Counted from the stretch's first letter, positions 1,124-56,034 are shown. The stretch: DNA of 64,000 bases from Glaucostegus cemiculus (GCA_976551045.1 CDPCPM010000238.1:2666001-2730000), one strand, 5' to 3'. A program made the numbers and translations. Notes: generated by a model from the sequence alone, not told the origin.

Positions 1124-1267
1124 TCATTCACGGTCCCACGTTCTCTTTGAAGTATTTACACCTGCGTACACTGAGTGCTTGTCCTGATGTTTAGGTGCTG
1201 ATGTTTTGTTGGATTTAGGAAGGTTCAGGGCGGCGTAAGTCAGTTTGTCAGCCCCGCCTCCTTTAGT
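1124..1267 (-). CDS. Copy 1 exon 7, terminal exon with ITIMs LTYAAL and SVYAGV
   Basis: TKGGGADKLTYAALNLPKSNKTSAPKHQDKHSVYAGVNTSKRTWDRE-stop; acceptor ctttcacAG; absent from the ORF track. Confidence 0.88.
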   Translation of the reverse strand, partial: TKGGGADKLTYAALNLPKSNKTSAPKHQDKHSVYAGVNTSKRTWDRE

Positions 1268-4200
1268 CTGTGAAAGTAATTCAATATCGTTTGTTATTGA
1301 ATACGGGAAGCAATCGATTTTTTAAACATCTTTGATCAGTATCAGATGGTGGCCGATTTATTAAGATCTTTTCTTACTCCGATTTTCTTATCTGATTATA
1401 CTGAGCCTTAATTCTAGGAGCCATTCCAGGCTCCACAGAGCAACGTTTACTTCCGTATTTACTATTGATATGTTAGGATGTTGACAGTGTAATCTATCTG
1501 AAGAAACAGGTAAACACTTAAAGTAGCATTTATATAACTAAATTCTTAGAATGCTAAGACATTGATGCATATTTTAGCTTTCGGCATCTGTTCCCAGAAA
1601 ACTGCTCATATAGTGGGAGAGCGGTGTTACTGACGGGGCTGCTGTGCTGGGGACCAAGTTAAGGAAAGACACTTCGCTGGCGCTCCGATCTCAATTAAAG
1701 AAGTCAGCGATCCAGTCGCCGCGTGGTCCGATGTGGAGTTAGCCACCCTAATGTGCAATGGTTATTTGTGAGGGTTGTTATTGGGCAAGATGGGTGGTGC
1801 AGGGGGGCCGAGAGTGGCTGTGATGCAAGGCTCAGTGCTGAATCTTGGGCGGCAAGGTAAGTGCGGACCAATGGTACTGACAAGCTTCAGACCACCCGAA
1901 TCCCACAATCCCTGCCATCGCCTCCGGCTGGGGGTGATGCAAGTTGCTGATTACCCTTTTTCCCAGCCCCGAGATTTCTCTGTGTTCACAAGGGACCACA
2001 CTAAGGTTACTGTATCCGAACCTCAGGGTTTGGAGAAGTGTTCTGCCAAAAAAAGAGAGGCATCGAACAGGAGGTGATGGGCAGACCCTTCTCACGCCAG
2101 TCCAGAGGAATGATGCCTGGACTGAAGGGACTGAGTTGCAAAGAGACTTTGGGAAGACTGGAGACACAGATGCTGGGATATGGAGCAACAACCAAAATGC
2201 TGGAGGAACTCAGTGGGTCAGGAAGCATCTGTGAAGGGAAATGGACAGTCGCCGTTTCTGGTGGAGACCTTTCAAGTCATCTGCACTGATGAAGGGTCAG
2301 GATGAAGGGTCTCAATCTGAAAGATGAACAGTTCATTAACCTCCACAGATACTGCCCGCTCCGCTGAGTACCTCCAGCATTTTGTTTGTTACAATGGGTA
2401 GGTTGGTTCTGACTTCCCTGGAATGAAGGGGGTTGAACGGTGACTTTATAAAGGGCTATAAAATTATAAGGGGGTGTGGATAGGGTAGATAATCAGTCTT
2501 TTTCCCATGGCCGGGGAGTCTAGAAAAAGAGGATAGATGTGGGAGTCAGAAGATTGAAAAGGGATCAGAGGGGCAAGTTTTCCACACAGAGAGTGCTGGG
2601 TATATGGAACGAGCTATCAGAAAATGTGGTAGAGGCAGGTAATATTACAGCATATAAAAGACATTTGGACAGGTACGTGGATAGGAAAGGTTTAGAGGCA
2701 TATGTGCCAAACTCAGGCAAATGGGATTAGCAGAGATAGACATCTAGTTCGGCACTGACGAGTTAGTAGAATGGCCCATTTCCGTGCTGTACGATTCCAT
2801 GAATCCCTCGGGTATACCTGGGAATAAATGACATGTTCCTCCTGGCGTCGACCTTTGGTAAATCCTTTGTCCGCTCTCAAGTTTAGTGTAGCGTAGGCAG
2901 TGGTATGTTTAACTGGTGCTTGTCTAGCCTGTTCCAATAAGACATTTAACACTGTTAGCGGCGAGTCTGATGGAGCGGATAGCTGCCTTAAGCTAGAACG
3001 GAATCTTAATTTGTAAACACACAGATCGATAAAATTGGGGCCCAGTAACATTCTACAATCAATGACAGTGCCCAGTATCTTACACGTGGGAGGATGTAAA
3101 TTTCTAAATGTAAATACTTTGGCTCTCAAGTCAGAATGGCTTTCAAGCTACAGCTTAAAATTTACCCTGTGAATAATATAAACTTCTCAATTCCAGCATC
3201 CCCTCCTTCCCCCTTATCTTTATCTTTCGACTTTCCAAAATATTTTTTTGTTGTTGTTGAATGCAGTGGCATCGGTCCCCTTCTCTTTCTCAGCGAGCAT
3301 GGTCTCTTGAAGTGGTCAAGAGCAGGGTCAGAGACTGACGTTTGCCTTATTCATTTCCCGGTACTTATAACCCTAGGTCTCTAACAGAATGTATGATCTA
3401 ATCACTCCCCCCTTTCCCATTTTCTAATTTAGGGATACCGGGGAGACCTGAAGCACTGTTCCAGACGGACGGACAGTCTTCCGCCTCTTCCTATCTATTT
3501 GGTTCCCTTGCGGAATAATTCCATGAAGGAAGTTAGGGTCTGGTGAGATACTTACGATTGAAACAGGGAAGGGAATTGGATAGACATGCCGCGTTAACTA
3601 CAGATATTTATTTTGGCATGACTAAAGCATGGCGTACAGAAGGAAGAAGTATTCCTATAGGTCACTTACTGGGTCTCAGCTGAAATATTGCACTAAAATC
3701 TGGGCACAACATCCTGAGAAAAAAATGTCTAGATCTGGGGAAAAAAGTTGCGAAGGAAATGTTTTAGTATGACACCAGCGATGAAAGACTAACTTATGCC
3801 AAGGATATCTAAAGCAGTTGTGATCGTTCTGCTTGTATCAGCTAGGATTAAAGACGTAATAAATATTTGAAGGATTTTGAATGAGTACTTACGGAGGAAC
3901 TATTTGCGCTACTAAATGAGTGAGTATACAAATGATATAAGAAATTTGCCAGAAGAATTGAAGAAAGATGTCGGGAATATTTTTATTTTTCTCAGTCATA
4001 GTTTCAGGATTGAGGACGTGTTGCTTCAACTCTGTTTCTGAGTAAGGGAACGGGTTTTTGTGTGAATTCTTTTAATGGAGATGGCTGTTGGACACCAGTC
4101 AACAAACGGTCTTGACAGAGGAGATCTAATTGGCAAGCCATTGTCAAGCAGATTCAAGACGGCTGGAAACAAGATTCTGCTGCACAGCCGTTACTTTGGT

Positions 4201-7200
4201 ACAGGGACCAGAACTGCACAGGAACCGCCCAACAAGGGTTTACCAATGGGATTATCAGCGCCTCAGCAAGAATCGCTACCTTTGCACCCCCCCCCCCCCC
4301 CCACAACTTTGTAATATATTTCAACATATCATTTGTCTTGTTAATTGCTTGGTAAATTTTCAGTCCGATGCGCAACGGCTCTTCTGAATAATAATTATTA
4401 AATTCACATCACTCAGGAAGTAATCCTTTTTTTCTATTCTTGCAACTTCGCACTTTGTCTTCTGCTTAATGTACATGACCTGCGGTGCATTCTTGGAACT
4501 TTTAAATAAGGATTGACAGATATTTGAAAATAAAGAGTTACGATAGACAGAATAGACACTTCTGCACCACAATAGTCTGATATTTTACTCAATGAAATTA
4601 AAAGATTGTCTGCTGAATGTAACATTTTTGAAAAAAAATCTTTGAAATATTAAGGACATTGTCACCCTACCGGTTCTGCGCTTTGACTTGGTTCCATCGA
4701 ACTTGTATTAACATCTACAAAAATAACGTGATTAGCAAAGTTTGTGATAACAATGTCAACATAATGTATTTGAAGCTCATGATATTTATTGCCTGAAGTA
4801 AGGATTCCATTTCGCGCGGATATTTTTGAAAACATTTAGCAATGCTGGTTGTTGCAAGTTTATATTTATATCTTAGCTTCTCATACTCTTTACTGATGTT
4901 GTACCTAATGTAGTGGGGCTTGACATTGAAATAGTAAAATGGTGATAGCATGCCACCAATTTTGATAGTCTCATAATTACAACGAAAATTCAAAGCACGA
5001 GGATTTAGATCAGGTCGCCTGCAAAGAAAATCAAAATCTATATCAAGTTGTTTATGATTCAAGATACTTTCAAAAATGCAATAAATGAACAATTCCAGGT
5101 GGTTGAAAAATTGAGGTGTAGAAGATGAATGATTAATTGGAATGAGAAGATGAATTTTTATTTTAAGTTCCACTTCATTTTGTCAGAATCAGCTATCAGA
5201 CACATGATGCTTTTGTTATGCCAGCTTAATAATTAACAATGTTTTTTATTCTTCTATAGTCGATTAGCATTAACCTGCTGCTCCTGTTTGTTAAAAATAC
5301 AATTAAGATGTTAACGCATTTCGTTTAATAAATGAAGGTCTTACCACATGACGCCTTTAATCTCCGTATTGTCAGAATTATAATTAGAACTAAAATTGCC
5401 AACCCGCCCGCTGCACACCCGAGAATCAGGACAATATGAGGCTCTACAGGAGAAACAGACAAATTAGAAGATGTAAAACCTATGCACATAGAGGTACACC
5501 GAGGAAATTGCGAAGCAGCAAAATAGAGCATTTCACGGTTGTTTTACAATTTCCATATACCGAATGGAACCATTGCAATTTAGTGATGAAATGTAAGAAA
5601 ATCAAACAAACCCTCTTACTTAATGAGCAGGGTGCCTCTGTTTACAAATCAGGTGACTTACTAAGAGTAAAACGAGTCTTGCTTTTCTCTTTGAGTGCGA
5701 CACTAAACAGTGGGCACAAGCTTTAAAAGTTACAAAGCCTTCCATATACCAGGACTGGCACCCAACACCTGTTTCTACAGCTTTTGAGGTGTAAGAAGAG
5801 TAAGTTGCATTTACTTTTGCATTTATAACCCTCCTGGCATGTAGAAATAGTGTATACTCACAACATTTGACGGCGAATCGCAGACTAACAGATATCAGGA
5901 GAGTTGACCTGATACTGCATGTAAAGGGCATGTAAACGTAAAGAACCCGCCTTTCATCCTAAAGAACACGTGTCTTGTTCCAGTCTTCTTCTTCTATGCC
6001 CCATCGTGTCTTTTTGCAGCTCAGAGCTGATTTATTTTGCTTAGGAACGCATCTGTTAAGTACCTTGAAGCTGTGCTCTGTCACAGGCACTATCTACATT
6101 CAACTTATCAATTCATCTTACGCGGATACAGTACAGAAAACAAAATCAGCGCGGAATAATGCATTAGCTTGTTTGTAAATTGCTTTTCCATTGTGAATAA
6201 ATGCGGTTCACATTTCCTCCTCATCCCATGTTTATACAGATGTCCAGCTACATTTCCAAAACGGGTTATAGCCCTCTCTCTGTTTCCAGTCTTACCTCGC
6301 TCCACGGTGTAGTCGACTCTGGCGGGCACCGTAAGGGATTCATGCGAAACCAGGCAACTGTAAACGTCGTTGCTCCAGGCAGGCGAAGTTATTTCGAGAA
6401 AACTGGAAGCCTCATACAACCCCTCCATGCTGCGGGTTTTCACGTTTTCTATCCCGGTCAGAATCGTTACACCATTTCTAAGCCAGGAGAACAAACATTC
6501 CCCCGGATAAAAAGCAGCCGTTTTACACATGAGTTTTCGCGAATTCGGTGAAGCCTCTTCAACCAGAAACATTTTGAGGGGAGTTGGCCGAGCTGCAACA
6601 GAAAAATAGGTATGTTGAATGTTTTCTTGGCATGTCAATAAATACACTCTGGTTAGCCTTATCACCTCGCGATCCCGCAGTCCCACCTGCGATCGCTTCT
6701 AAACCTGTAGGTTTGGCTTTATCGTCAAATATATTCAAGCAATGCATGAGGAATGTGAAACTACTTGTAGGTACTGTGACGGGAATGCGCCGCTGTTCTG
6801 AATGGAAGTGCCGGATTTTCCACGCGGTAGCAGCTAGTAACAAACTTCAGTGTTTACTTCAAAACTAGCTATTTTTAGACGTTTATTGCAAGGAATGAGA
6901 TATGTATAATGGAGTGTCGTAGCGACAGACAGCACAGAAATCAGTATGAACCCCCCCCCCCCCCCGGGTTCACACTAACCATTAAGCATTCATCTCCACT
7001 TATCCCATTTTCATCCAGCATCCCGATAAACTAGCCCCATCCTTGCCCTTCAGTAGGTACTTATCCCGCCAGCCAGCATCCTTTGGCATTTGGAAGAGAC
7101 CGGATCTCCGGAGGAAAATCCACGTGTGCACAGGGAGAATGTGAAATTGCAGGCAGAGAGCTCCCAAGGACATGATCGAACCTGCCGGCTGAAGCTGCGG

Positions 7201-9644
7201 ACAGCTGTGCTAACCAATGCGGAGCTGCATATATCGCACAGTCTGTAGCCGAGAGACAGGATTTGGTTACATGGATGGATTAGAGTTTGAGCTTTACTAT
7301 AGTTTCGGCAGCTGTTCGGTGCCCTGGATGGAGATGTCAGTGACCTCAATGTTCACTGGGAGGGTTTTCCCCAGAACGCGATCTGACCGTTGTTGTATCT
7401 CCCAAGGCACGACAGAGTTATACTGATAATTAGTTATTGCTGTGCCAGTCGTAGAACCGATAATGATGAAGGGACGTGGATCAGGAATCCAAACTCACAG
7501 CGCATTTGTCCTGCACTGTTGCCCTTTCTAATACGTACAGTGTTGAGTTGAACACATTTAGTCTGAATAGCTTCTACTGATATCAGCTCTATATTTGTCA
7601 TTTGCGAACATTGGTCTGCGTCAGTAAGATCTACAATCGGTGCTTAACTGGGATGAGAAACTATTTTTGAGGTGGTTTCAGAGTTTCTCACAAGCAATCT
7701 GTTTATTGTCTTAGTTTTTAACCTTCTTTAAGTTGTCTTCGTAACAACTCATTTATCAGCATTATTCTGAACTTCGGAAGAAACTGCAGTCTTTATTTCT
7801 CGGCCTCACTCAGTGCTCTGCCAGTTGAAGCTCAGAAGTTCTCCACGACATGACACGGACCTATTCTCTCTCAAACAAATATTTGGTGAGAGGTTTAGCG
7901 GAAAGCGCCGTTCTCTTCTCTCTCCAGAACTTCAGCCTCGGGTTTGAGTCGTGTAAAGAGAAATCACGAGGTGCAAGGACAGGAGCGCAGGCGCTTCCCC
8001 GAGAAACTGCTGCATCCTGCCGGTGTGTTGCAGAGGTTGAGTGTACAAAGGAAATCCTCTTGGAGTGAGACAGATGGAAATACGGGGATATTCGGTTCTG
8101 GGACTCAGGACTTGGATACCCCGACGACAAGCATCAAACCGCACCTCTCAACAGGTTATAAGATTCCTTTGTAAAATAACCATGGTGGTATGAAACGGGT
8201 TTCAGCTTCGGTTACAGACCGAGGACAAAGAGTAGATCATCCGAACCTGGAGGCCGCTCCGGTGTTCAGACAGTTCGCAGATGATTTGCGTGTCAGCCCC
8301 AATAACTGCATACCCTGCGACACCAAATCCGAACAAAACAGCTACACCTTAATCCTGAGAGGTCCATATGTTCATCTGTTTCCAGGGTGTAAGGGAAAAT
8401 AGTCCCAGATTTCCGAGAATTCGGCGTAAGAGCTACTGGATTTTCGATTGAAGCCCTGGCGCCAAAAACAGAACTCGTTTGTGAATTAACACAGACCGTG
8501 GGTGTACACTGTTCTTCTTAGAATGTTACTACTATGGTCTGGGGTGGAATGGTTGGTTTTTAATATTGCTTAAATTAACCGAATCAGGCTGAAGATGTTA
8601 ATATTATTGCCTTGTGTTGTGAAGAGAAATCTGTACTTCCAGTCAGAGCCACCATTCCCACATCCATACCGCTTCAAAACCTTCCTTGAAAAACGATTCT
8701 AACAAAATTCTAATGTGAGTCATTGGATTAAAAACACTCTAGCATTTCATGGGAATAATACAGTTTGAATCTGAATCCTGGGTAATAGAGTAAAATCGGT
8801 ATCGCGAATCAACCGGATGTTAATGGAAAAGACCCTCTATGGAAACACGGAATGAGAAACAGCACAAGTTTTCTCGTTCCACAGTTGCTGCCTGAGGTGG
8901 TGATTATTTCCAGAGAATTCAGATTTTCGGTCCGTTGCTCAGTTTGCTTTTGTAGTTTAAACCTGGATCAGTTATTATCGGGTTTCCCCCGAGTGACAAA
9001 CGTTCATAATACGCTCATCAGCGACCTTATTTTATATCGCAGGGAGCTCGAGTTCCCCCACTTACAGGACACTTACCGTACACAGTGAGGTTGGAGCCTG
9101 CTCCATCTCCGATAGACTGTTGCTGAGTTTTCACTTTGCAGTAATAGATCCCGGAGTCTGTAGCTCTGGCATTCAGGATAACGAAAGAGGCGCTGCCCCT
9201 ACTAACAGTAAATTGTTTTCTGCTGTCTGGTTCGACAGGTCTCTTCTCGCACCATTTCCACCAAGAAACGTTAGGAACAGTTTGTTGAATGGAGAATAAG
9301 CAGGACATAGAAACATTGTCTCCGCCGTGGACGGTCAGGTTTGCAGGGAATTGGTTCACTTTGCTCGATGTTACGTCGACGGCTGCCAGAAAATAAGCGA
9401 GAACATTGAAAACCGTTGCGCAAAGCGGAGAAGGAAAAAAAATATAACCACGAGGTGCAAAACAGAAAGATAATTTAGAAGCAACAAGCGACTGGAGAAG
9501 CACTGTAAGTAAATTCGCGGTGGGTAACCAATGTGGAATATTCTAAACAGTGTTTGATACACGGAAACAGCACAAATAACCGAATGTACCCTGCCAAACT
9601 GTAGCCAGAAGAGTCATGTACCGAACTGATGCTTTAACCAACAT
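1124..9644 (-). CDS. IgSF inhibitory receptor, SIRP-like VJ-C1-TM-ITIM, copy 1 (7 exons, 351 aa)
   Basis: Exons 9590-9644, 9077-9382, 6296-6592, 5345-5443, 4671-4714, 2818-2928, 1124-1267. All introns GT-AG, phases 1,1,1,1,0,0; the joined 1056 nt is open to TGA. Confidence 0.9.
2160..2390. mobile_element. Fold-back repeat, probably Penelope-terminal-repeat derived, nested in a CR1 fragment (also ~17460, ~32820, ~48130)
   Basis: Inverted arms caaaatgctggaggaactcag (2193) and ctgagtacctccagcattttg (ends 2384), with central ctgatgaagggtc. Confidence 0.7.
2391..2800 (+). mobile_element. CR1 LINE 3' end fragment (also ~17690-18100, ~33050-33460, ~48355-48770)
   Basis: FSTQRVLGIWNELSENVVEAGNITAYKRHLDRY matches the CR1 ORF2 C-terminus. 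Confidence 0.85.
2818..2928 (-). CDS. Copy 1 exon 6, cytoplasmic tyrosine motifs TAYATL and VIYSQ
   Basis: ARQAPVKHTTAYATLNLRADKGFTKGRRQEEHVIYSQ; acceptor gaacAG, donor GTATAC. Confidence 0.85.
3620..4030 (+). mobile_element. Highly decayed CR1-like fragment
   Basis: cagctgaaatattgcactaaaatctgggcac resembles the CR1 LEYCVQFWAP region; boundaries approximate. Confidence 0.5.
4671..4714 (-). CDS. Copy 1 exon 5, short cytoplasmic exon DVNTSSMEPSQSAEP
   Basis: tttttgtAG acceptor, GTAGGG donor; 44 nt converts phase 1 to the phase 0 required by the next exon. Confidence 0.8.
5345..5443 (-). CDS. Copy 1 exon 4, transmembrane segment
   Basis: EPHIVLILGCAAGGLAILVLIIILTIRRLKASC: hydrophobic run then basic stop-transfer residues; AG/GT flanked, 99 nt. 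Confidence 0.92.
6296..6592 (-). CDS. Copy 1 exon 3, Ig C1-set domain
   Basis: LMCKTAAFYP...SWLRNG...YSCLVSHESL are C1-set hallmarks; acceptor ttgcAG, donor GTAAGA. Confidence 0.95.
6925..7222 (-). mobile_element. V-SINE/HE1-like SINE, antisense, in the V-C1 intron (also ~22220-22515, ~37585-37880, ~53400-53715)
   Basis: ccggaggaaaatccacg...cacagggagaatgtgaaa...gatcgaacc...gtgctaacca is the reverse complement of the tRNA head plus V core. Confidence 0.75.
9077..9382 (-). CDS. Copy 1 exon 2, VJ-type Ig V domain
   Basis: B-strand Cys (VSMSC), C-strand WW, DSGIYYC, J-like GDGAGSNLTV; acceptor ttttctggcAG, donor GTAAGT. Confidence 0.95.
9590..9644 (-). CDS. Copy 1 exon 1, leader peptide MLVKASVRYMTLLATVWQ
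   Basis: ATG, 55 nt, phase-1 donor GTACAT; exon conserved in divergent copy 4. Confidence 0.8.
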
Positions 9645-9770
9645 ATTGCAAAACATTGATTTGGCCCCTTGCTGCGAATGAGGGAAGTGACCTCAACGGT
9701 CCGTGTAAGAACCTGTATTCATGAGCAACTATTTGACGCTTGAGATAGTGACATAGAATATCACATGACT
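9645..9770 (-). promoter_or_regulatory. Putative proximal promoter/5' UTR with ETS-like (GAGGGAAGTG) and C/EBP-like (ATTGCAAAA) motifs
   Basis: Motifs lie within ~50 nt of the ATG in copies 1-3; the ETS core is altered in copy 4. Motif match only. Confidence 0.35.
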
Positions 9771-10037
9771 GTTAGCACAATGCTTTACAGCACCAGCGAC
9801 CCGGGTTCAAATCTAGCCACTGTCTGTAAGAAGTTTTATACCTTCTCCCCATGTCTGCATGGGTTTCCTCCGGGTGCTCCGGTTTCCTCTAACATTCCAA
9901 AGACGTACGGGTTAGGAAGTTATGGGCGTACTATGTTGGCGCCGGAAGTAGGGCAACACTTGCGGGCTGCCCCCCAAAATCAATACGCAAAAGATGTATT
10001 TCACTGTGTTTCGACGTACACTTGACTAATAAAGATC
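9770..10037 (+). mobile_element. tRNA-derived HE1/V-SINE upstream of copy 1
   Basis: gttagcac...gacccgggttcaaatc (B box)...tgggtttcctccgggtgctccggtttcctc (V domain). Confidence 0.88.
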
Positions 10038-10279
10038 TCCCTGGTGAAAATGTTCTATCTGAGTTACAACCCTCTCCCAGACTTTAACGTGGCACCGTGA
10101 GTACACGACAGAGGCACTCACAATATATGGCAATAGAGGATCCTGGGACCAGAAGCAATCTCTAAATGAACAAAATGCCGTTCATTCACGTATTGTATTA
10201 GTTATCTCCTTTCAAGTATATTTTCTGATACGCTGTTTCTGATATCTGTTTCAGCTGAAGATAGTGGACAATATTTCCA

Positions 10280-11245
10280 ATTGATCTTCATCCCTGTTGT
10301 TTGTGATATATATACTGCATATAAAAGACTGTATGATGTAGGGTATATTGAAGACTATAGTTAGTTTGTGAATGACACAAAAATTCGTGGTGGAATGGAT
10401 GGTGGATTTGTTATCTAAGGCTACAGAAGGACATGGAAGAGACGAAATGTTGGACAGAGCTTTGGCAGCTGAAATTTAATCTAGGCAAGATGCGTCTGGG
10501 GAAGGTAAGCAGAGATAGGACACACACAGAAAATAGTAGTGCACTAAGGAATGCTGGTGGACAGAAGAACTATCGATCCCTGAAAGTGGCAACAGGGTAG
10601 ATAAGGAGGTAAAGAAGGCATATGACGTATTTGGTTTCATCGGCTGGGATAAAGAAAATAAAAGATGGGATCTTATGTTCCAAATTTACAAAACACCCGT
10701 TTGTCCGCATTTGGAGTATTGTGTGCGGTTCTGGTCGTCACCTTTTACGAAGGATGTGGTTGGGCTGGAGAGGGTGAAGAGGGCATTCACCAGGATGTCG
10801 TATTGATTGGAGGACTTTAGTTACGGTGGGTGATTGGATAGCTGGGCTTGTTTTTATTGGAGCATAGGAGGATGAGGGGCAAACCTGCAGAGGTATATAA
10901 TATGACAAGAGGCATAGAAAGGGTAGATAGTCAGAATCGATACCCCATTGTAGGAGTATGAAAAAGGAGGTCATGGGTTAATTTGAAAGAGAAGAGTTTG
11001 CCAAAAGATTTGAGGGGAAATGTTTGTTTTTACACGAAGAGTAGTTGATATTTGGAACTCGTTTCCTGTTGCAATCTTATATGGTCTCTATATTTCAGAT
11101 ACATTTAGAGCGGCACTTTAACAGGCAAATCATAGAAGCAAAAGGAGTTTATCTAGGCAAGCGGGAATAGTTTAGGTGGGCAAATAGGTTAGCAGTTATG
11201 TACAGGATTGAAGGACCCGTTATACACTGTCTAGTTCTTTGACTC
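10280..11245 (+). mobile_element. 5'-truncated CR1 LINE (also ~25600-26600, ~40970-41935)
   Basis: Decayed DDTKI...LQKD...WQLKFN...PHLEYCVRFWS motifs of CR1 ORF2 with stops and frameshifts. Confidence 0.85.
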
Positions 11246-11269
11246 TGTCGCCGTCACCACATCCAGGGA

Positions 11270-14809: not shown

Positions 14810-14890
14810 ACATATATATATTGATATATAAATATAATGTATTATATAAATAGAATATAATATACTTATATAAATATATAATAGATAATC
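14810..14890. repeat. AT-rich low-complexity tract (also ~30175-30250, ~45485-45560)
   Basis: Almost exclusively A/T, degenerate (TA)n. Confidence 0.8.
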
Positions 14891-14894
14891 CATC

Positions 14895-25625: not shown

Positions 25626-25628
<3 letters not shown>

Positions 25629-40297: not shown

Positions 40298-40458
40298 ATT
40301 GCAAAACATTGATTTGGCCCCTTGCTGCGAATGAGGGAAGTGACCTCAACGGTCCGTGTAAGAACCTGTATTCATGAGCAACTATTTGACGCTTGAGATT
40401 GTGACATAGAATATCACATGACAGTGAAGCGGCTTCTGTTTTAACGGAGACCCCTCCT

Positions 40459-43700: not shown

Positions 43701-46700
43701 CCGTCCTACAACATCAACACTGACGAGTTTTGCACTGTTGAACAAATATTTCATGTTTCTGCTCTTCTTACCAAACTGGTAAACCCAATACTTCCCCACA
43801 TTATATCCCACCTGCCATCGATTCGCCTGCTCAGTCTTACTGTGTTGTAGATCCGCATTGCCCTCACAGCTCCGCGTTCACGGAGCTTTGTATAGTCAGT
43901 AAAGTTGGATACACTACACCAATTGGTAAATTCACCAATTTACATTGTAAGTAGCTGAGGCCCATATATGGGCTCCGTGTCAGATTATGACGAGTAGGGA
44001 GCCAATCTGAAAAGGTAACAACCTTAGTTTTATAGTAGTGTACCCGAGTAATCTTCCAGCAATCAGTATTTTCTCCTATTTCAGATACTATTTGTCTCCT
44101 ATTGTTTAAACCTCCAACACATTTCACCACTATACCACTCTCTCGATCTTTCCTGGTGTCTGACTTATCACAATTTCTTTTGTTCTTTCTCCACCTCCCC
44201 TCTTTCTGCATATTGTTATATTTCAACATTTTCCCAGTTCTGCTGAATGTTAATCAAACTGGAATATTAACCCGATGTCTCTTTCCTCTTGCCTGACTTG
44301 CTGAATATTCTCAGCATTTTCTGTCCCTTTAATGGTTTTACTTTTCTGTCTGTTCCAAGTACATTTTTTCGGAACCAGCCCCGCCTACGTGTTTTATTTT
44401 AGGGCTGCACTAAAGCATGCTGAGGAAGAATTGCTGATCAGATACCAGGGCTGTTTTCTCCACTATTGTCCACTAAGAGCAGACAGCGGGTGTATTCTTC
44501 AATGTCACACAACAGCAGTGCTGCACCAAAGTGTTTGTCAGTCTAGGTGACATTTCAGTCTTATAACATGATTCAGAGGTGACAGGACTGCTACTTTCTC
44601 CAAGCACACATTTGTAGACTTCTTCCAGCCACTGAGGGGTGCTGCCTGCACCACGATGGCATGCCAGTAATTTCTGAAGGCGGGAAATGTACTCTCAGGT
44701 TCTCTGATAAGGACCTTGAGAAACTTGTGCACCACATCATCCACAGGACGAACGTCCACTGTTCAAGAGGGTCAGGGGGCGCAGGCACGAGGGGTGTAGC
44801 TATTGTGATTGAAAACTTAGGGAGCGTTTTGTCAGGCCCATGCTCCCGTCCTCCTCCCCATGTAGTTGTTGACAAAAATAAGAAGCAACTTTCACTCACG
44901 TTTGCCGGGGTCATTTCTTGGAGCCGTTTGCAATTCTCAATCTTATATTGGGATAAAAAAAACATCTTAGCGGAACATAGATTTGATACAGGAGCAGAAG
45001 GTTTTACACTGGATAAAAAAACAGGCATCCTTTCTAATATGGCACATCTGGCAACTCTAACAGCAACCTTTCAGGACTATTGCCATATTGGAGCCCTACC
45101 TGACATCTTCCCGACGACGTGAGGGATCTGTAATGCAGAGTGAACATGTGACTGACTTATCTGATCCTCTGGGCTGATATACAAGTAGAGGAAGTGCGGT
45201 AGTGTGATGTAGAGAGGGTTAATGTCCTTCACAACCCCAATCTGGGAGTATTAGAAACCTATGAGGTGTAGCATATATCTGCAAAGGCACACTGGAAGGA
45301 TCATGAGTTTGGGAAGTTAAGTGGTAGACTTTGTCTTTCACCGTGAGAGCAGGCCAGACACATACGTCATTGGTTATAGAACAGTAAAAACAAGCCATTC
45401 AGTCCTCTGAGCCTGCATTAACCGTAAACGCCCATTAACCCTAATTCTACTAATTCTATATTAATCTAATTTTTGCTCTCCTAACATATATATATTGATA
45501 TAAAATATAATGTATTATATAAATAGAATATAATATACATATATAAATATATAATAGATAATCCATCCCGGCCACTTCTCGAAATTCACACCATCACAGA
45601 AGCCAGTCGTCAGCAAATTTGATCCACACCGCGTGATATTCAGGAAAGTATGAACCCACTAGATACATTAAAGGAAATGGCACCAGCCAACATTCCAGCT
45701 GGAGTTCTGAAGACCTGTGCTCAAGGACTAGCCAAGCCTTTTCAGTGCAGATCTGGGTGAAAGCGATGTTCAGGTGAAGTTATTGCAAAGGCATTGCTCT
45801 GCACTTTAGATTATTCCTTTTGTTCGGGAGAGATGACAAACTGCTGCTTGTTTGTCATTAATGGTTGACTAAAAGCTCCTACTGTTGCTCTTTGAAATGG
45901 TAGTTCTGTAGGTTAGGCAGTGAGTTTCCTTTTTACCCCAGTTATTGCCCTTGACAACCTACCATTGTACACCACAACAAAACTACATTATATCTCATGG
46001 TTCACTAGTTAATGTAGGTATCTCTCCGCTCCAGTAACAACTTAGTCCTAACTCCTGCGGCTACTGTTGTGGAGTTTGCATATTCTTCATCTGCCTGTGT
46101 GGGTTTTCCCCAGGTTCTTCAGTTCCCTCCCACTTTAAAACACGCTGGTTGGTTGCCTGCTGTAAATTGTCCCTGGTGTACGTGGGTAGCAGGAGTTAAG
46201 GGACATGGGAGAGAGAATCGGTTGCAGAGAAATGATGAATGGGACTTCCGAGAGCTGGCACAGATATGATAAGCCAAATGGCCTAATCATAATCAAGTAT
46301 GAAGTAGTACCAGCAGACCTGTACTAATTTACTTGCATGAGTGCATTTCTACCTGCTTCCAGCGGTCTGCAAATGCTGGCCAGACTTCACAGTTGTTCTT
46401 ATGCGCAGCAGTTACTTTATTGAAAGGCTGGTCTCCAATCCCAAATATTCTAGGTGATTATGGAGCCTGCAATTTGAATCTACTTTAAAATCTACCTATA
46501 CATGTCGAAGTCTTTCTGTACATATGTTTGAACCTGGAGAAAATGAAAACATTTCTATAGTGGGACTAGACTGCAACTTCTAGTTGTTCCGCCCGCTTCA
46601 GTTCAGCCCATGGTAATTGTTTAGGGAAGGGTGCATTTCTCTCGTGGTTCAGTGGTTGTAAATTCCTTCTCTGTTTTGTATGCAGGCAGGTGCCAATCAC

Positions 46701-47092
46701 AGCAACTAACAGACATGAAGCCTCGGGTGGATTTGAAAACAAAAGTAGTTTTAATACGTTGAAAATAACATTATTTTTAAGAAGTTGAATAAATGGGTAT
46801 TTGCTTACAGGACGGAAGTTATCATGCGCTGACCCTGCGAAATGTTAATAACATCACACTAAATGCACGGTGCACTTCCAGAAGACAACATAAGTGGGCG
46901 AGCGCAGGATTTGAATTTGCGCCCTGCGTAAAACTGCCTTGGACGTTAAAAACGCAGGTAGCTGACGGGCCGGTTTCCAACTCCGCCAGCTTATCGGCTG
47001 ACTGCTGAAGTTGGAAAGACCTCCTCCCTGCTCCCCTGTGATGTGGATCGTCAGTCCTTCGGCCGGCAGCAACACGCGATTTGGATCCTCCT

Positions 47093-47236
47093 TCATTCAC
47101 GGTCCCACGTTCTCTTTGAAGTATTTACACCTGCGTACACTGAGTGCTTGTCCTGATGTTTAGGTGCTGATGTTTTGTTGGATTTAGGAAGGTTCAGGGC
47201 GGCGTAAGTCAGTTTGTCAGCCCCGCCTCCTTTAGT
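47093..47236 (-). CDS. Copy 4 terminal ITIM exon
   Basis: Same translation as copies 1-3. Confidence 0.88.
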   Translation of the reverse strand, partial: TKGGGADKLTYAALNLPKSNKTSAPKHQDKHSVYAGVNTSKRTWDRE

Positions 47237-50200
47237 CTGTGAAAGTAATTCAATATCGTTTGTTATTGAATACGGGAAGCAATCGATTTTTTAAACATCT
47301 TTGATCAGTATCAGACGGTGGCCGATTTATTAAGATCTTTTCTTACTCCGATTTTCTTATCTGATTATACTGAGCCTTAATTCTAGGAGCCATTCCAGGC
47401 TCCACAGAGCAACGTTTACTTCCGTATTTACTATTGATATGTTAGGATGTTGACAGTGTAATCTATCTGAAGAAACAGGTAAACACTTAAAGTAGCATTT
47501 ATATAACTAAATTCTTAGAATGCTAAGACATTGATGCATATTTTAGCTTTCGGCATCTGTTCCCAGAAAACTGCTCATATAGTGGGAGAGCGGTGTTACT
47601 GACGGGGCTGCTGTGCTGGGGACCAAGTTAAGGAAAGACACTTCGCTGGCGCTCCGATCTCAATTAAAGAAGTCAGCGATCCAGTCGCCGCGTGGTCCGA
47701 TGTGGAGTTAGCCACCCTAATATGCAATGGTTATTTGTGAGGGTTGCTATTGGGCAAGATGGGTGGTGCAGGGGGGCCTAGAGTGGCTGTGATGCATGGC
47801 TCAGTGCTGAATCTTGGGCGGCAAGGTAAGTGCGGACCAATGGTACTGACAAGCTTCAGACCACCCGAATCCCACAATCCCTGCCATCGCCTCCGGCTGG
47901 GGGTGATGCAAGTTGCTGATTACCCTTTTTCCCAGCCCCGAGATTTCTCTGTGTTCACAAGGGACCACACTAAGGTTACTGTATCCAAACCTCAGGGTTT
48001 GGAGAGGTGTTCTGCCAAAAAAAAGAGAGGCATCGAACAGGAGGTGATGGGCAGACCCTTCTCACGCCAATCCAGAGGAATGATGCCTGGACTGAAGGGA
48101 CTGATTTGGAAAGAGACTTTGGGAAGACTGGAGACACAGATGCTGGGATATGGAGCAACAACCAAAATGCTGGAGGAACTCAGTGGGTCAGGAAGCATCT
48201 GTGAAGGGAAATGGACAGTCGCCGTTCCTGGTGGAGACCTTTCATCTGCACTGATGAAGGGTCAGGATGAAGTGTCTCAATCTGAAAGATGAACTGTTCA
48301 TTAACCTCCACAGATACTGCCCGCTCCGCTGAGTACCTCCAGCATTTTGTTTGTTACAATGGGTAGGTTGGTTCTGACTTCCCTGGAATGAAGGGGGTTG
48401 AATGGCGACTTTATAAAGGGTTATAAAATTATAAGGGGGTGTGGATAGGGTAGATAATCAGTCTTTTTCCCATGGTCGGGGAGTCTAGAAAAAGAGGATA
48501 GATGTGGGAGGCAGAAGGTTGAAAAGGGATCAGAGGGGCAAGTTTTTTCCACACAGAGAGTGCTGGGTATATGGAACGAGCTATCAGAAAATGTGGTAGA
48601 GGCAGGTAACATTACAGCATATAAAAGACATTTGGACAGGTACGTGGATAGGAAAGATTTAGAGGCATATGTGCCAAACGCAGGCAAATGGGATTAGCAT
48701 AGATAGACATCTAGTTCGGCACTGACGAGTTAGTAGAATGGCCCATTTCCGTGCTGTACGATTCCATGAATCCCTCGGGTATACCTGGGAATAAATAACA
48801 TGTTCCTCGTCGCGTCGACCTTTGTCCGCTCTCAAGTTTAGTGTAGCGTAGGCAGTGGTATGTTCAACTTGTGCTTGTCTAGCCTGTTTCAATATGACAT
48901 TTAACACTATTAGCGGCGAGTCTGATGGAGCGGATAGCTGCCTTAAGCTAGAACGGAATCTTAATTTGTAAACACACAGATCAATAAAATTGGGGCCCAG
49001 TAACATTCTACAATCAATGACAGTGCCCAGTATCTTTCACATGGGAAGATGTAAATTTCTAAATGTAAATACTTTGGCTCTCAAGTCAGAATGGTTTTCA
49101 AGCAACAGCTTAAAAATTACCCTATGAATAATATAAACCTCAATTCCTACATCCCCTTCTTCCTCTCTTATCTTTATCTTTCGACTTCCCAAAACGTTTT
49201 TTGTTGAATGCAGTGGCATCGGTCCCCTCCTCTTCCTCAGCTAGCCTGGTCTCTTGAAGAGGCCAAGAGCAGGGTTAGAGGCTGACGTTTGCCTTATGCA
49301 TTTCCTGGTACATAACCCTAGGTCGCTTACAGAATGTATGATCTAATCACTCCCCCTTTTCCATTTTCTAATTTAGGGATACCGGGGAGTTCTGAAGCAC
49401 TGTTCCAGACGGAAGGACAGTCTTCCTCTTCTTCTCATCTATTTGGTTGCCTTGTGGAATAATTCCATGAAGGTAGTTAGGGTCTGGTGAGATACTTACG
49501 ATTGAAACAGGGAAAGGAATTGGATAGACATGCCGCAGTAACTAAATATACTTATTTTGGCATGACTAAAGCATGGCGTACAAAAGGAAGAAGTATTCCT
49601 ATAGGTCACTTACTGGGTCTCAGCTGAAATATTGCACTAAAATCTGGGCACAACATCCTGAGAAAAAAATGTCTGGATCCAGGGAAAAGTTGCGAAGGAG
49701 ATGTATTAGTATGACACCAGCGATGAAAGACTAACTTATCCCAGGGATATCTAAAGCAGTTATGATCGTTCTGCTTGTATCAGCTAGGATTAAAGATGTA
49801 ATAAATATTTGAAGGATTTTGAATGAATAAGTGCGGAGGAACTATTTGCACTGCTAATGATTTAAGAAATTTGAAAGAAGAACTTGAAGAAAGATGTCGG
49901 GAATATTTTTATTTTTCTCAGTCATTGTCTCAGGATTGAGGACGTGTTGCTTTAACTCCGGTTCTGAGTAAGGGAACGGGTTTTTGTGTGAATTGTTTTA
50001 ATGGAGATGGCCGTTGAACACCAGTCAACAAACGGTTTTGACAGAGGAGATATAATTGCCAATCCATTGTCAAGCAGACTCAAGATGGCTGGAAACAAGG
50101 TTCTGCTGCACAGACGTTATTTTGGTACAGGGTCCAGAACTGCACAGGAACCGCCAAACAAAGGCTTACCAAAGGGTTTATCTGAGCCTCAGCAAGAATC

Positions 50201-53200
50201 GCTACCTTTGCACGCCACCCCTCACCCCCAACCTTGCAATATATTTCAACATATCATTTGTCTTGTTAATTGCTTGGTATATTTTCAATCTGATGCGCAA
50301 CGGCCCTTCTGCATACTAATTATATTAAATTCTCATCATTCAGGAAGTAATCTGTTTTTTCTATTCTTCCAACTTCGCACTCTGTCTGCCGCTTAATGTA
50401 CGTGACCTGCGGTGCATTCTTGGAACTTTTAAATAAGGATTGACAGATACTTGAAAGTAAAGAGTTAAGATAGACAGAATAGACACTTCTGCACCACAAT
50501 AGTCTGACATTTTACTCAATGAAATTAAAAGTTTGTCTGCTGAATGTAACATTTTTGAAAAAAAATCTTTGAAATATAAAGGACATTGTCACCCTACCGG
50601 TTCTGCGCTTTGACTTGGTTCCATCGAATTTGTATTAACATCTACAAAAATAACGTGATTAACAAAGTTTGTGATAACAATGTCAACATAATGTATTTGA
50701 AGCTCATGATATTTATTGCCTGAAGTAAGGATTCCAGTTAGCGCGGATATATTTGAAAACATTTAGCAATGCTGGTTGTTGCAATTTTGTATTTGTACAT
50801 TAGCGTCTCATACTCTTTACTGATGCTGTACCTAATGTAGTGGGACTTGACTTTGAAATACTAAAATCGTGATAGCATGTCACCAATTTTGTTACGTCTC
50901 ATAATTACAAAGAAAATTCAAAGCACGAGGATTTAGATCAGGTCGCCTGCAAAGAAAGTCAAAATCTATATCAAGTTGCTTATGATTCAAGATACTTACA
51001 AAAATGCAATAAATGAACAATTCCAAGTGGTTGAAAATGTGGTTAGAAGATGAATGATTAATTGGAATGAGAAGATGAATTTTTATTTTAAGATCCACTT
51101 CATTTTGTCAGAATCAACTATCAGACACATGATGCTTTTGTTATGTCAGTTTATTGATTAACAATGTTCTTTATAATTCTATAGTCGATTAGCATTAACC
51201 TGCTGCTCTTGTTTGTTAAAAATACAATTAGGATGTTAACGCATTTCGTTCAATAAATAAAGGTCTTACCACGTGACGCCTTTAATCTGCGTATTGTCAG
51301 AATTATAATCAAAACTATAATTGCCAACCCGCCCGCTGCACACCCGAGAATCAGGGCAATATGAGACTCTACAGGAGAAACAGACAAATTAGATGATGCA
51401 AAACCAATGCACATAGAGGTACACCGAGGAAATTGGGAAGCAGGAAGATAGAGCATTTCACGGATGTTTTACAATTCCGGTTGCACGCGGATTGCAATAT
51501 ATACCGAATGGAACCATTGCAAGTTAGTAATGAAATGTAAGAAAAATCAAACAACTCTATTACTTAATGAGCATGGAGCCTTTGTTTACACATCAGGTGA
51601 CTTACTAAGAGCAAAACGAGTCTTGCTTTTCTCTTAGTGTGCGACACTAAACAGTGGGCACAAGCTTTATAAGATACAAAGCCTTCCATATACAAGGACT
51701 GGCACCTAACACCTGTTTCTCCAGCTTTTGAGTTGTAAGAAGAATAAGTTTCATTTTCTTTTGCCTTTATAACCCCCCGGCATATAGAAATAGTGTATAC
51801 TCACAACATTTGACGGCGAATCGCAGAGTAGCAGGTATCAGGAGAGTTGACCTGATACTGCATGTAAAGGGCAGGGTTAAAGTTACATTTTAAGGAGAGG
51901 CCAGGACACTGAACGGTATAGGGAAGGAATTCCAGTGTCGAGGACATGGGTAGTTGAATTCAGAATGAGCAGGAAAAGGATGGAATTAATGACATTTAAA
52001 TACACAAGACTTTAAAACTGGATGACACTTTATAGCGGGTAAGAACATAAGGACTAGGAAATAAGGTCATGGGATATCTCGAGCTTTCTTAAATTGTTGT
52101 GGTTATTCCTATATTATAATCCACTTTCCTGCCTGATATTCATATTCCGTGATCCTCTGATTTTTCAAAAGAAAGGAATCCGGTCAATACCGACTTATTC
52201 CCAATTTCCACTCGCCCTTGGTAACGCAGCAGTGAGCTGCCTTCGCGGATCACTACAGTGGTCCGGGTGAAGAGAACCCAATAATGCTATTGAGCGGGTA
52301 GTTCTAGGGTTTGCTAGTATCTGCCATGCTACGAGGCAGGGAATTGCAAAGATTCACATCTTTCTGTGTGCTGAAATTTCTTCTCAATTCAAATGCAAAA
52401 TTCGCCATCTCTTAAAGTACGTGTGTAATAGTTCAGACAGTGTCTTTGCCCGTTTGCCCTATAATGTTCTTTTACAGCTCAGATGATCCTCTGCCCGCTA
52501 ATACATCTTGAAAGTGCCTTGAAGTTTGTGCTGTGTCACATGCACTATAAACAATCAATGTATTAATTCACCTGACATGGACGTAATTAAGCAAAATAGT
52601 GCGGAATGATGCAATGCCGCGGAAAGCTGTTTGTGCATTGGCCTGCTATTATGAATATTTCCCCCTTCTCCCCGTGTTTGGATAGATATCCAGCTACATT
52701 TCTAAACCGGGTTCGACTTCCCCTGTTTCCAATCTCACCTGGCTCGACGGTGTAGTTAACTCTGGCGGGCGACTGAAGTGATTCATGTGACACCAGGCAG
52801 GTGTAAACATCTTTGCCCCAGTTCGGCGGCGTAATTTCCAGAAAACTGGAAGCCTCATACAATTCCTCCACGCTTTTGTTTCTCACCTCTTTTACTCCGG
52901 TCAGAACTGTTACACCATTTCTAAGCCAGGATATTTCTAATTTCTCCGGATAAAAGGCAGCCGTTTTACACACGAGTTTTCGAGCCGGTGAAGTCTCTTC
53001 AACTGTATCAATTTTCAGGGGAGTTGGTAGAGCTGCAACAACAAAAAAAGTTATTTTGCATGCTTTCTTTCCATAGCAATGAATGCGTCCTCGTCTGCCC
53101 CATCACTTCGCGATATTGCAGTCCCACTAGCACAACGGTTACCCGAGCTCTCGCTTAAACTTCTGGGCTTTTGAAGTTGTTTTATATTTCGTTTTACGGT

Positions 53201-56034
53201 GGACGGTAAAATGTATTCAAGCACTCCAAGAAAGCGCGAAGCTGGATGTCGGTAAGGTCGGGGAAATGAGCCGCTGTTCTGCAGTGCCAGGTGGAGCGCG
53301 CAGTACGAGCGAGAAGCAGCCTGTTGTGCTTATTTCAAAACTAACTATTATTTTAAGATAATCTTTGCAAAGACTGAGATATGTATAATAGACTGTCATA
53401 GAGACACACCGCACGGAAACTGGCACTACACCAGACTGCGTTCACACCGATCACTAAGGACCATTTCCACTGTTTTTCTCCAGCATCCCCATCAACCAGC
53501 CTCATCCCCCCACACCACAACACACCTACCAGGAGCAATTTACAGCAGCACATTATCCGACCAACCAGCACATATTTGGCATGTGGAAGAAACCGGAGCA
53601 CTGGAGTTCACCAGTTCACAGGGAGAATGCGCAACTACACACGGACTGTACCCGAGGTCAGGATCGAACCTGCCCATGAAGCTGTGAGGGAGCTGTGCTC
53701 ACCGATATTGCACTGTATATATCCAGATGTCACCAATGTCTTAAGTCTAGAGGCAAGGTGTAGTTACAAATATAGATTAGAGATTTGTCCTCACAGTTGT
53801 TAAGGCAGCCGTGCCGTGTCCGGGATGAAGATTTCAGATGACGCAACTTTTAACTAAGAGAGTTTTCTCCATAAGCGGACTGTGGGCTAGAAGACTTACT
53901 ATATAACTCGTAGCATCAATAAAGACGAAGGAAAGCGAATGGGAAATCCAAACTCACAGCAGATATCTTCTGCACCTTTAACTTTTCTTAAAAACACTCT
54001 GTTCGTTGAACACATTTAGTCTGGATAAGATCCGACTGATCTGTATTAGTCACGAGCGAACGCTGATTTGCGTGCGTTGGATCTACAGTCAGTGCTTGGC
54101 TGAATGGAGAGTTAATTGCTAAGCTAAAATGAGAGTTTATTACGAGAAATCTGTTTAACATCCCAGTTGTACATCTAGTTATTTTACGTTTTTGTGATAA
54201 CACATTATTGACTCGGGATCCTCATTAATTTTGGAAGAGATATCCGTCTTTCTTCTCAGCCTCAGGGAGTGCACTGCCAAACAAATTCGGAATTTCTCCA
54301 CCACTTGACCACGGATCTATTTTATGTAGAACAAATATTTTGGGGGAACTTCCGTTGAGAACACGGGTGTTGGGTCTGTAAAGGGAAATCGTGAATTACA
54401 AGGACTGGAGCCCAGGCGTTTTCCCAGGATGCCGTTAAATGTTGTTCATGTTTTACAGATGATGAGTGTATAAAGAAAATCTACTTGGAGTGAGATAGAC
54501 ACGAACACGGGGATGTTCAGTTCGCAGACTCGGATACCTCGAGGGGAAGAGTCACGCCTCTCAATGGACTGTAAGATTCCCTTGTAACATAACAATGGTA
54601 GTCTGAAACGGATTTTAGCTTCGGTTACAAACCGAGGAACAGATGCAGAGCATTTATCCCACGAAGCTTGTCCGGTGTTCAAGGAAATCTTTGAACTGTA
54701 TCTGTCCACACTGCAGACCGCGTGACACCGAACCCTAACAAAAACTTTACATCCCACTTCCAAGAGGCCGTTTTCGCTTTCCGTTTCCAGACTTTAAGGG
54801 GAAAATGTTGCAAATTTCGGAGACTTCGGCACAACAAATCCCGGATTGACAACTTGAAACAGTGGCGATAAACAGAAGACATCTGGTGTGTGGATGACAC
54901 GGATTGCGAGTGGAAACTTCGGATATTGTAACGAGGGTTGGCATGAAATTGTTGCGTCGTTATTTTTGCTTAGAGGAACCGCATTAGGCTGCAGGTGTTA
55001 ACATTCTTGCCTTGTCTCCGGTGAGGCGAAATCTGTCCCTCTCACACCAAGATTTAAATATTCATACTGCTTCAACATCTTCCCTGCAAAACGATTCGAA
55101 CACAACTTCCAATCTAAGTAATTTAATTAAAAAACTCCGGTACACAAGGGAGATAATAAAACGTGAACCGAGGTAATTGCTTACAAAATGGTAGCGTGAA
55201 TCTGCCGGATGTCAATGGAACAGGCCCTCTGGAGAACCACGAAGTGAGGAATAGCACAACATTCCTCACCCCACAGATGCTGCTCCACGTGCTGATTATT
55301 TCCAGAGATTTCCGGTTTCCAGTCCGTGCAGCGGTTTGCTTTTACAATATAAAACGGAATTAGATATTTATTGAGTTTTCGCTGAGTGATAAAAATTCAC
55401 ATTATTCCCATCACCGAGCTTTACTTATATCGCAGGAAGTCAAAATTTCCCCACTTACGGGACACTTACCGAACACAGTGAGTCTGGAGCCAGGTCCGTC
55501 TCCGATATACTGTTGCTGATCATGCACTTTGCAGTAATACATCCCGGAGTCTGCGACACTCGCATTCAGGAGAGTGAAAGTCGCTCTGCCCTTGCTAACA
55601 TTAAATTGTTTTCTGCTGTCTGGTTGTAGAGAATTCTCGCCCCATCTCCACCAAGAAACATCAGGAGTAGCTTGTGACATGGGGAATGTGCAGTACATAG
55701 AAACATTGTCTCCTCTGTGAACGTTCTTATCTTTGGGGATTTGGTCCACTCTGCTCGAAGTTACTTCTGCGGCTGCCAGAAAATAAGCGAGACCATTGAA
55801 AACAGTTGCACAAAGTGGACAAGGAAAAAGAACCAAGAGACGAAAAGGATAAACATAATTTAGAAACAGCGACAAGCGGATTGGGGAAGCACTGTCAGTA
55901 AATTCGCGGTAGTTAATCAACATGGCATTTTCTTAAACAGGACTGGGTGTTCGGAAACAGCACAAGTCACTGAACGTACCCCACCAAACTGTAGCCAGAA
56001 GAGTCAAGCACCGAACTGATGCTTTAACCGACAT
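47093..56034 (-). CDS. IgSF inhibitory receptor, SIRP-like VJ-C1-TM-ITIM, copy 4, divergent ectodomain (345 aa)
   Basis: Exons 55980-56034, 55470-55772, 52739-53032, 51270-51368, 50598-50641, 48785-48883, 47093-47236; all coding indels versus copies 1-3 are multiples of 3. Confidence 0.9.
48785..48883 (-). CDS. Copy 4 cytoplasmic exon 6 (12 nt shorter, in frame)
   Basis: ARQAQVEHTTAYATLNLRADKGRRDEEHVIYSQ. Confidence 0.85.
50598..50641 (-). CDS. Copy 4 cytoplasmic exon 5
   Basis: DVNTNSMEPSQSAEP, splice sites conserved. Confidence 0.8.
51270..51368 (-). CDS. Copy 4 TM exon
   Basis: ESHIALILGCAAGGLAIIVLIIILTIRRLKASR. Confidence 0.92.
52739..53032 (-). CDS. Copy 4 C1 exon (divergent)
   Basis: LVCKTAAFYPEKLEISWLRNG...YTCLVSHESL; donor GTGAGA. 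Confidence 0.95.
55470..55772 (-). CDS. Copy 4 VJ-type V exon (divergent)
   Basis: VSMYC...VSWWRW...DSGMYYC...GDGPGSRLTVF; one codon shorter than copies 1-3. Confidence 0.95.
55980..56034 (-). CDS. Copy 4 leader exon MSVKASVRCLTLLATVWW
   Basis: ATG, 55 nt, donor GTACGT; better conserved than its flanks. Confidence 0.82.

Follow-up and report, generated by a model that had tools for sequence, protein, structure and literature searches.

The window analysed here is a 64,000-nucleotide (nt) stretch of the genome of the ray Glaucostegus cemiculus (GCA_976551045.1 CDPCPM010000238.1:2666001-2730000), and its subject is a tandem array of four germline receptor genes of the immunoglobulin (Ig) type lying between positions 1124 and 56034. 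A preliminary description, made from the sequence alone, had claimed four complete genes on the minus strand, and model building on the window upheld it. Each gene has seven exons in the order leader, VJ, C1, transmembrane (TM), short cytoplasmic exon and two tyrosine exons; all 24 introns are of the GT-AG type and the frames are open, which is the sense in which the genes are called intact. The six exon junctions match database proteins of other rays, with gaps nearby of at most 1-3 residues. As predictions from sequence, the four are confirmed as real genes.

Gene 1 (9644-1124, minus strand like the others, 351 amino acids) is defined by its introns, open frame and Pfam matches. It comprises a leader exon (9644-9590), the VJ exon (9382-9077), the C1 exon (6592-6296), the TM exon (5443-5345) and three cytoplasmic exons: cyt1 (4714-4671), cyt2 with Y279 and Y302 (2928-2818), and cyt3 with Y315, Y338 and the stop codon (1267-1124). 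Gene 2 (24931-16420, 351 amino acids) has GT-AG introns, an open frame and corresponding exons at 24931-24877, 24674-24369, 21888-21592, 20738-20640, 20009-19966, 18227-18117 and 16563-16420. Gene 3 (40297-31784, 351 amino acids), identified by open frame, Pfam and comparison of the junctions, has exons at 40297-40243, 40040-39735, 37252-36956, 36103-36005, 35374-35331, 33589-33479 and 31927-31784. Gene 4 (56034-47093, 345 amino acids) is an open frame in which a divergent V-C1 part stands on a nearly shared TM and tail; its exons are at 56034-55980, 55772-55470, 53032-52739, 51368-51270, 50641-50598, 48883-48785 and 47236-47093. The proteins of genes 2 and 3 differ at a single residue, and genes 1-3 encode the same C1, TM and tail sequences without any difference in protein. 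A search of the window for further or relic Ig, TM or Arg-TM exons found none.

The N-terminal domain is encoded within one exon, which contains Cys-B, Trp-C, DSGxYYC and a J-like G strand, G-x-G-S-x-L-T-V. The claim that this exon does not rearrange was borne out as well, since scans for recombination signal sequences (RSS) in or beside any V exon gave nothing above chance. An RSS look-alike with two mismatches and a 24-nt spacer is present in the V-C1 intron of gene 4 (54707-54746, plus strand), 760 nt off the V exon; it is absent from the other units and, with 0.25 such sites expected, at chance level. Calling the domain a V domain stood only in part: the VJ exon is joined, while the predicted fold departs from the canonical one. 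An AlphaFold model describes the single-exon VJ domain of gene 4 (55772-55470, minus strand), and the V model (predicted local distance difference test score 92) is built of strands A, A', B, C, D, E, F and G, C' and C'' being absent. The spacing of the two cysteines is short (53-54 in the array genes, 54-60 in 103 of 103 parsed relatives) and Pfam rates the domain I-set slightly above V-set. As modelled, the array V domain departs from the canonical nine-strand form. An extra unpaired cysteine, C63, was observed in the V domain of gene 1.

The best fold matches of the V model were a skate VNAR (8ht3; Z 15.1, root-mean-square deviation 1.7, 95 residues) and NCAM2 Ig1 (Z 15.1), with CD79b at Z 13.9 and NKp30 at Z 12.8 (rank 50); Foldseek placed CD79b first, followed by many VNARs. 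The identities in these matches are only 17-30% (20-26% to VNAR), and the likeness is therefore one of shape and not of descent. SIRPα d1 was not among the 50 and 38 fold matches listed for the V model, which does not imply its exclusion. The V domain alone, when queried against the ESM Atlas, returned generic V-set clusters, and PDB searches with V alone or C1 alone were dominated by multi-domain chains. In VH-VL packing, a Phe or Trp precedes the GxG motif. None of the 85 J motifs of the family has it; 54 of them carry an N-G-S/T N-glycan sequon there, and the four array genes have Asp at this position. The absence of the packing residue from all 85 motifs suggests that the V domain of the family is unpaired.

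The second domain was confirmed as C1-set by Pfam (E 1e-11 and 3e-14), and the C1 hallmarks listed in the portion of PMC2785349 consulted are all present: FYP, a 13-residue Cys-Trp gap and CLVSH (CxVxH). Each gene has a single C1 exon, and a relic of a second one was sought in the window and not found. The fold matches of this domain are tied across all C1-set proteins (B7-H6 reaches Z 11.8), and the rank of 40 obtained by SIRPγ, within about 1.5 Z of the top, is uninformative. In genes 1-3, the C1 domain has an extra unpaired cysteine, C153. The TM segment carries no charged residue in any of the four genes, as had been described, and a TM cysteine (GCAxG) is common across the family.

Four tyrosines per tail, at positions 279, 302, 315 and 338, were likewise found as claimed. 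Their spacing of 23-13-23 compares with 22-23/13-14/20-23 in the four-tyrosine relatives of Mobula and chimaera. The two tyrosine exons are related to each other, their alignment score being reached by only 4 of 5000 shuffles, and each contains a YxxL-N-L motif with a second tyrosine about 23 residues on. Read-through of the cyt2 donor (2818, 18117, 33479 and 48785) was considered as an alternative model; it would give VIYSQV with loss of the last two tyrosines and was rejected, as the homologues support the spliced form. The read-through frame runs for 35-41 residues before a stop and may represent a two-tyrosine isoform.

Self-alignment resolved the array (1-51873) into three units of about 15.3 kb that are about 99% identical (1-15296, 15297-30660 and 30661-45969) and a partial fourth unit (45970-51873), which contains the TM and tail exons of gene 4. 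The unit pairs differ by 150, 208 and 134 mismatches in 15,379 columns. The differences among units 1-3 are mainly substitutions, with transitions in excess and just 11-12 indel events, and are distributed as mosaic blocks. Unit identity extends to base 1 of the window, which contains no N. The array may continue to the left, as the preliminary description had it. One such block covers the V exon of gene 1 and its flanking introns over about 1 kb (8713-9640, minus strand): here gene 1 is 5-9% divergent from genes 2 and 3, compared with about 0.5% outside the tract, and unit 1 is the odd one at 69 of 85 variable sites. Probably this tract arose by conversion of a V cassette from a donor outside the window. 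Gene 4 was ruled out as the donor, siding with gene 1 at 21 of 83 sites and with genes 2 and 3 at 40. The V changes between genes 1 and 3 map to the BC, CD and DE regions of the model and not to the FG loop. A second mosaic block occupies a segment of the upstream spacer of unit 3 (approximately 42560 to 45969), unit-3-specific at 69 of 76 variable sites against units 1 and 2.

Gene 4 departs from the others at a break in its C1-TM intron, where about 0.6 kb of unique sequence (51874-52503) separates the array from a diverged block of the self-alignment (52504-56162). On the tail side of this break the sequence is 90-100% identical to unit 1, on the V-C1 side 65-79%. At the protein level, gene 4 is 61-62% identical to genes 1-3 in V, 70% in C1 and 94% in TM and tail; its introns are 65-70% identical to those of the other genes, rising above 90% past position ~51,900 and to 99-100% at the last exon. 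The ratio of non-synonymous to synonymous rates against gene 4 is about 1.05-1.1 for V and about 0.5 for C1 (p 0.03-0.04). Judged from these sequence comparisons, gene 4 is an older V-C1 part joined to the shared tail. It is inferred that unequal crossover and conversion would make the signalling half uniform, with the V cassettes being swapped or retaining their diversity.

Relatives of these genes were found throughout the cartilaginous fishes. The V domain of gene 4 matched a horn shark protein automatically named SIRPα-like at 64%. A query with the horn shark protein gave 31 relatives among 1647 candidates, all of them chondrichthyan, and a 57-sequence profile gave 47 matches among 8000 candidates in a word-limited search: 42 with visible chondrichthyan names, two with incomplete names taken as chimaera, two unnamed and one weak teleost match. 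Altogether, 66 named family proteins (isoforms included) represent 16 genera of chimaera (Callorhinchus), sharks and rays. Within a species the relatives with contig information apparently lie on one contig (10 of 10 for Heterodontus and 7 of 7 for Heptranchias), and this points to a single family cluster per genome. The preliminary description had called the family recently expanding; this holds for the local array, which is recent, whereas the receptor family itself is old and widespread. It had also proposed a cartilaginous fish as the source and separate trees of the two domains. In the C1 tree the array genes form a clade (97/92) within a ray clade (100/96), in agreement with the proposed source, while the V tree leaves their placement among the rays unresolved. 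In these trees 15 of 70 V rows and 23 of 70 C1 rows were left out as unparsed by the pattern, besides duplicates, and SIRP sequences were not included.

The family had further been described as inhibitory. The four-tyrosine tail of the array genes, of the type carrying immunoreceptor tyrosine-based inhibitory motifs (ITIM), agrees with this, but 8 of 132 family proteins have an Arg near the TM start followed by DH and no long ITIM-type tail. These 132 are the 66 named proteins and an unnamed remainder after filtering, and the Arg-TM class was counted by sequence pattern; an earlier automatic TM scan had proved unreliable, with one false Arg and two misses. That scan flagged no Lys TM among the 66 named proteins, and having missed two Arg cases of Heptranchias it is insensitive. 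Because of the Arg-TM members, the sequences suggest a paired family, activating and inhibitory, and not a purely inhibitory one. The catshark protein P0007, of the Arg class, shares 95 of 102 V and 90 of 96 C1 residues (93-94%) with P0008 but not its TM, and horn shark P0005 combines a V of a different subfamily (46%) with a 92% identical C1; domain shuffling is therefore family-wide.

The relatives include a third class, seen in seven shark genera and chimaera (P0078, P0181, P0183, P0187, P0189, P0190, P0193 and P0194), with a W-W-I/V-Y start of the TM, a Cys-rich juxtamembrane region and 0-1 tyrosines, which possibly represents a conserved member that does not signal or is ligand-like. P0001 and P0012 (also P0027) are database isoforms without the TM exon that keep the tail, and the horn shark tails contain an additional repeat with six tyrosines.

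Taken together, we regard the array genes as probable germline type I inhibitory receptors of a chondrichthyan paired family that would resemble SIRPα in its working by recruiting SHP-1/2, a reading by analogy to which we assign a probability of about 0.7. Recruitment of SHP-1/2 by the SIRPα tail is described in the consulted part of PMC2785349. The mammalian SIRPα tail motifs given in the excerpts of PMC5413580 are ITYADL, LTYADL and QTEYASI; the array has LTYAAL, and chimaera and Mustelus have TEYAEI or TEYAEL. The tail resembles that of SIRPα in having four tyrosines arranged as two pairs of an ITIM and a second tyrosine, with nearly the same motifs, though two of the tyrosines are non-canonical and the second in the array is YxQT. 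Similarly, a non-rearranging single-exon VJ with a GxG G strand followed by a true C1 domain is a SIRP feature in the cited portion of PMC2785349, and a multigene cluster with inhibitory and charged-TM forms is also shared. The C1 domain resembles SIRPα d3, which scored 46.4 bits alone, compared with 17.8-36.5 for isolated C domains from the other listed chains. For P0022, a full-length chimaera relative, the nearest ESM Atlas clusters are SIRPα (0.97) and the best PDB match is SIRPα (52.5 bits), and the family profile ranks SIRPα 4th and SIRPγ 10th of 2667.

Several observations weigh against this reading. An ITIM follows the consensus I/V/L/SxYxxI/V/L, and only two of the four tyrosines fit it, Y315 (LTYAAL) and Y338 (SVYAGV); at Y279 (TAYATL) position -2 is occupied by Thr, and the sequence around Y302 (VIYSQT) does not have the YxxL form. 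The V-C1 stretch scores 71.8 and 66.4 bits on light chains and 64.7 on SIRPα, individual light chains score up to about 90 bits in the profile search, and with P0020 as the query SIRPα came only 23rd, behind antibodies and UrIg2. No bony-vertebrate SIRP was among the 47 matches of the word-limited profile search. An Arg-TM gene was sought in the window and none was found, and P0008 has a TM exon of inhibitory type in which its own Arg replaces the Cys of the others, in a model without a tyrosine tail; for this reason the P0007/P0008 pair is only suggestive. Between the V domains of genes 1 and 3 there are 16 non-synonymous changes and one synonymous change, which is not significant (p 0.13). 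Lastly, the array V model has no C' or C'', in contrast to SIRP d1, a V-set domain of nine strands in the text drawn from PMC2785349. Further differences from SIRP are the missing Phe or Trp before GxG and the single C1 domain, compared with V-C1-C1 in mammals. The latter is a weak difference, and SIRPs with one domain or shorter forms exist. SIRPβ1 has a TM Lys and the adaptor DAP12, whereas the activating forms of this family have Arg near the TM start.

The likeness to SIRPα in the tail and in the Atlas match is upheld, while membership is not proven, because the ectodomain scores as well on Ig light chains. We consider it somewhat better than an even chance, from sequence likeness, that the family is a chondrichthyan branch of the SIRPs. 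By analogy the array receptors would be SIRPα-like in their working, yet they are not filed as SIRP, since the C' and C'' strands of the defining V domain are lacking.

Among the other readings, an independent chondrichthyan family would have arisen from a germline-joined V-C1 of IgL, IgNAR or UrIg type and gained its ITIM tail separately; its receptors would still be inhibitory and the likeness to SIRP convergent. It gains from the VNAR match of the V model and the many VNARs in the Foldseek list, from the light-chain scores of the V-C1 stretch, from the rank of UrIg2 above SIRPα by whole-chain score, and from the fact that all named strong family matches are chondrichthyan. Nevertheless, the low identity to VNAR and the tie with NCAM2 Ig1 indicate that this match may stem from nothing more than the missing strands, the rank of UrIg2 is a sum over several domains (its best stretch gives 58.2 bits), and the absence of Phe or Trp before GxG speaks against an antigen-receptor module. 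The tail motifs and the d3-like C1 favour SIRP over an antigen-receptor origin as well, and we find this origin unlikely. A bolder proposal, which we hold to be speculative and distinctly improbable, makes the family a surviving membrane-bound signalling sister lineage of the VJ-C1 gene split by RAG and not a SIRP branch; the V without C' and C'' would be shared with IgNAR by descent, so that VNAR would owe its compact scaffold to this innate family, and repertoires would have been made before RAG by conversion of V cassettes.

The automatic names of the relatives are inconsistent (SIRPα-, SIRPβ-, B7-H6/NCR3LG1-, CD276, PD-L1-, tapasin-, IgL-, TCRβ- and MHC II-like), and the NCR3LG1-like, CD276, PD-L1-like and tapasin-related ones among them, together with B7-H6 among the C1 fold matches and B7-like clusters in the Atlas structure rows, would suit B7-family or tapasin-related V-C1 ligands or chaperones in place of signalling receptors. 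These labels are best-hit noise, because the same family is also named IgL, TCRβ and MHC II, and the C1 fold matches are tied; receptors are what one would expect from the J-type G strand, the Arg-TM counterparts and a four-tyrosine tail that chimaera and rays have in common, which leaves this explanation most improbable. Finally, the ~99% identity of the units and the single residue between genes 2 and 3 raise the question of an assembly artefact, with haplotypes placed in tandem or a false duplication and a true number of two or three genes. This would affect the copy number only and is improbable: three distinct units exceed what two haplotypes can give, the unit differences are mostly substitutions (134-208) in mosaic blocks with few indel events, and the window has no N.

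On the preferred reading of SIRPα-like inhibitory receptors, the protein would be displayed as a monomer on leukocytes, probably myeloid ones, and the loops of its compact V domain would bind a ligand on the surface of cells, which may be a marker of self or a mimic of such a marker made by a pathogen. The tail would be phosphorylated by Src-family kinases, and the paired tyrosines would dock the tandem SH2 domains of SHP-1/SHP-2, by which activation or phagocytosis would be damped. The Arg-TM members would be the activating counterparts, signalling by way of an adaptor of the FcRγ/CD3ζ type. Unequal crossover and gene conversion would keep the signalling half uniform and exchange V cassettes, and the array would therefore widen the range of ligands without RAG. 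The best reading of the V sequences is that the domain may have diversified against a putative ligand.

Comparison with other known systems delimits the family. UrIg and UrIg2 are elasmobranch non-rearranging VJ-C1 genes in the accessible sections of PMC12227049 and PMC10751288, and they share with the array a single-exon VJ, a C1 domain and the cartilaginous-fish host. UrIg is secreted with three C1 domains, UrIg2 has nine and both are disulfide-linked, Fc-like dimers encoded in one or few copies, whereas the array genes have one C1, an ITIM tail and a multigene paired family. The compact V without a region for complementarity-determining region (CDR) 2 is like the VNAR of IgNAR, its top fold match; VNAR rearranges and hypermutates, whereas the V exon of this family is joined in the germline and encodes a CDR3 loop that is short and fixed; the identity to VNAR is 20-26% and the Cys-Cys spacing in the family 53-60. 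Unlike Ig and TCR, the array has no RSS-flanked V or J and no FGxG motif, and it has an ITIM tail. NKp30 has, like the Arg-TM relatives, an Arg TM, with a single VJ domain directly on it; NITRs have a V-I architecture, and MDIRs are not known to have a C1 domain. NKp30 and CD79b are one-domain proteins that lack an ITIM tail, whereas the array genes have a C1, a neutral TM and an ITIM tail. NKp30 (NCR3), CD79b, PRARP and NITR are listed together as single-exon VJ genes in the part of PMC11599192 consulted. The multigene activating and inhibitory organisation in a batoid recalls the MDIRs of skate, which the available text of PMC3031540 relates to CD300/TREM/pIgR.

The family seems little studied. 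No description of it was found in open-access literature, including the portion of PMC7916673 consulted; subscription papers were not covered and an earlier mention is quite possible. In the parts of the texts available, SIRP and ITIM are unmentioned in PMC12227049 and SIRP in PMC10751288, and ITIM, NKp30 and CD47 are unmentioned in the elephant shark genome supplement (PMC3964593), which is probably not the immune note. The suggestion that the family might be uncharacterised is tempered: SIRP-like paired receptors are a known kind, and annotation pipelines already name many relatives SIRPα-like. The genes themselves are well supported as predictions, and they stand for a probable paired family of SIRP-like receptors, spread across cartilaginous fishes, whose ectodomain is a minimal V-C1 and whose V is compact in the manner of VNAR. 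Relics of the gene split by the RAG transposon are looked for among non-rearranging VJ-C1 genes (PMC12227049, in part), and the shark examples known so far, UrIg and UrIg2, form dimers of Ig-like type; a paired family that is bound to the membrane, occurs throughout the chondrichthyans and has the minimal V-C1-TM layout would supply a missing taxon for the question of VJ-C1 origin. Should the family belong to the SIRPs, self-recognition of the SIRP type goes back to the base of jawed vertebrates. The compact V would be a second cartilaginous-fish case of C'/C'' loss, bearing on the origin of VNAR, and the array appears to show V-cassette exchange in progress.

Outside the exons, 15 of the 96 listed open reading frames (ORFs) were run through Pfam without a real match, no flanking gene was found in the window, and an Rfam scan of it gave 0 matches. 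The stretches 59700-62300 and 11200-15000 (with its copies) are degenerate and by eye resemble remnants of long or short interspersed elements; the ORFs tested there had no Pfam match. About 670 nt past each of the four stop codons an AATAAA is present on the minus strand (452, 15748, 31112 and 46421), likely the polyadenylation signals. Upstream of all four genes lies a non-coding block of about 80 nt that is 76-81% conserved (58707-58785, 10205-10283, 25528-25581 and 40893-40971), although the rest of the upstream region of gene 4 is unalignable; possibly it is a promoter or enhancer element.

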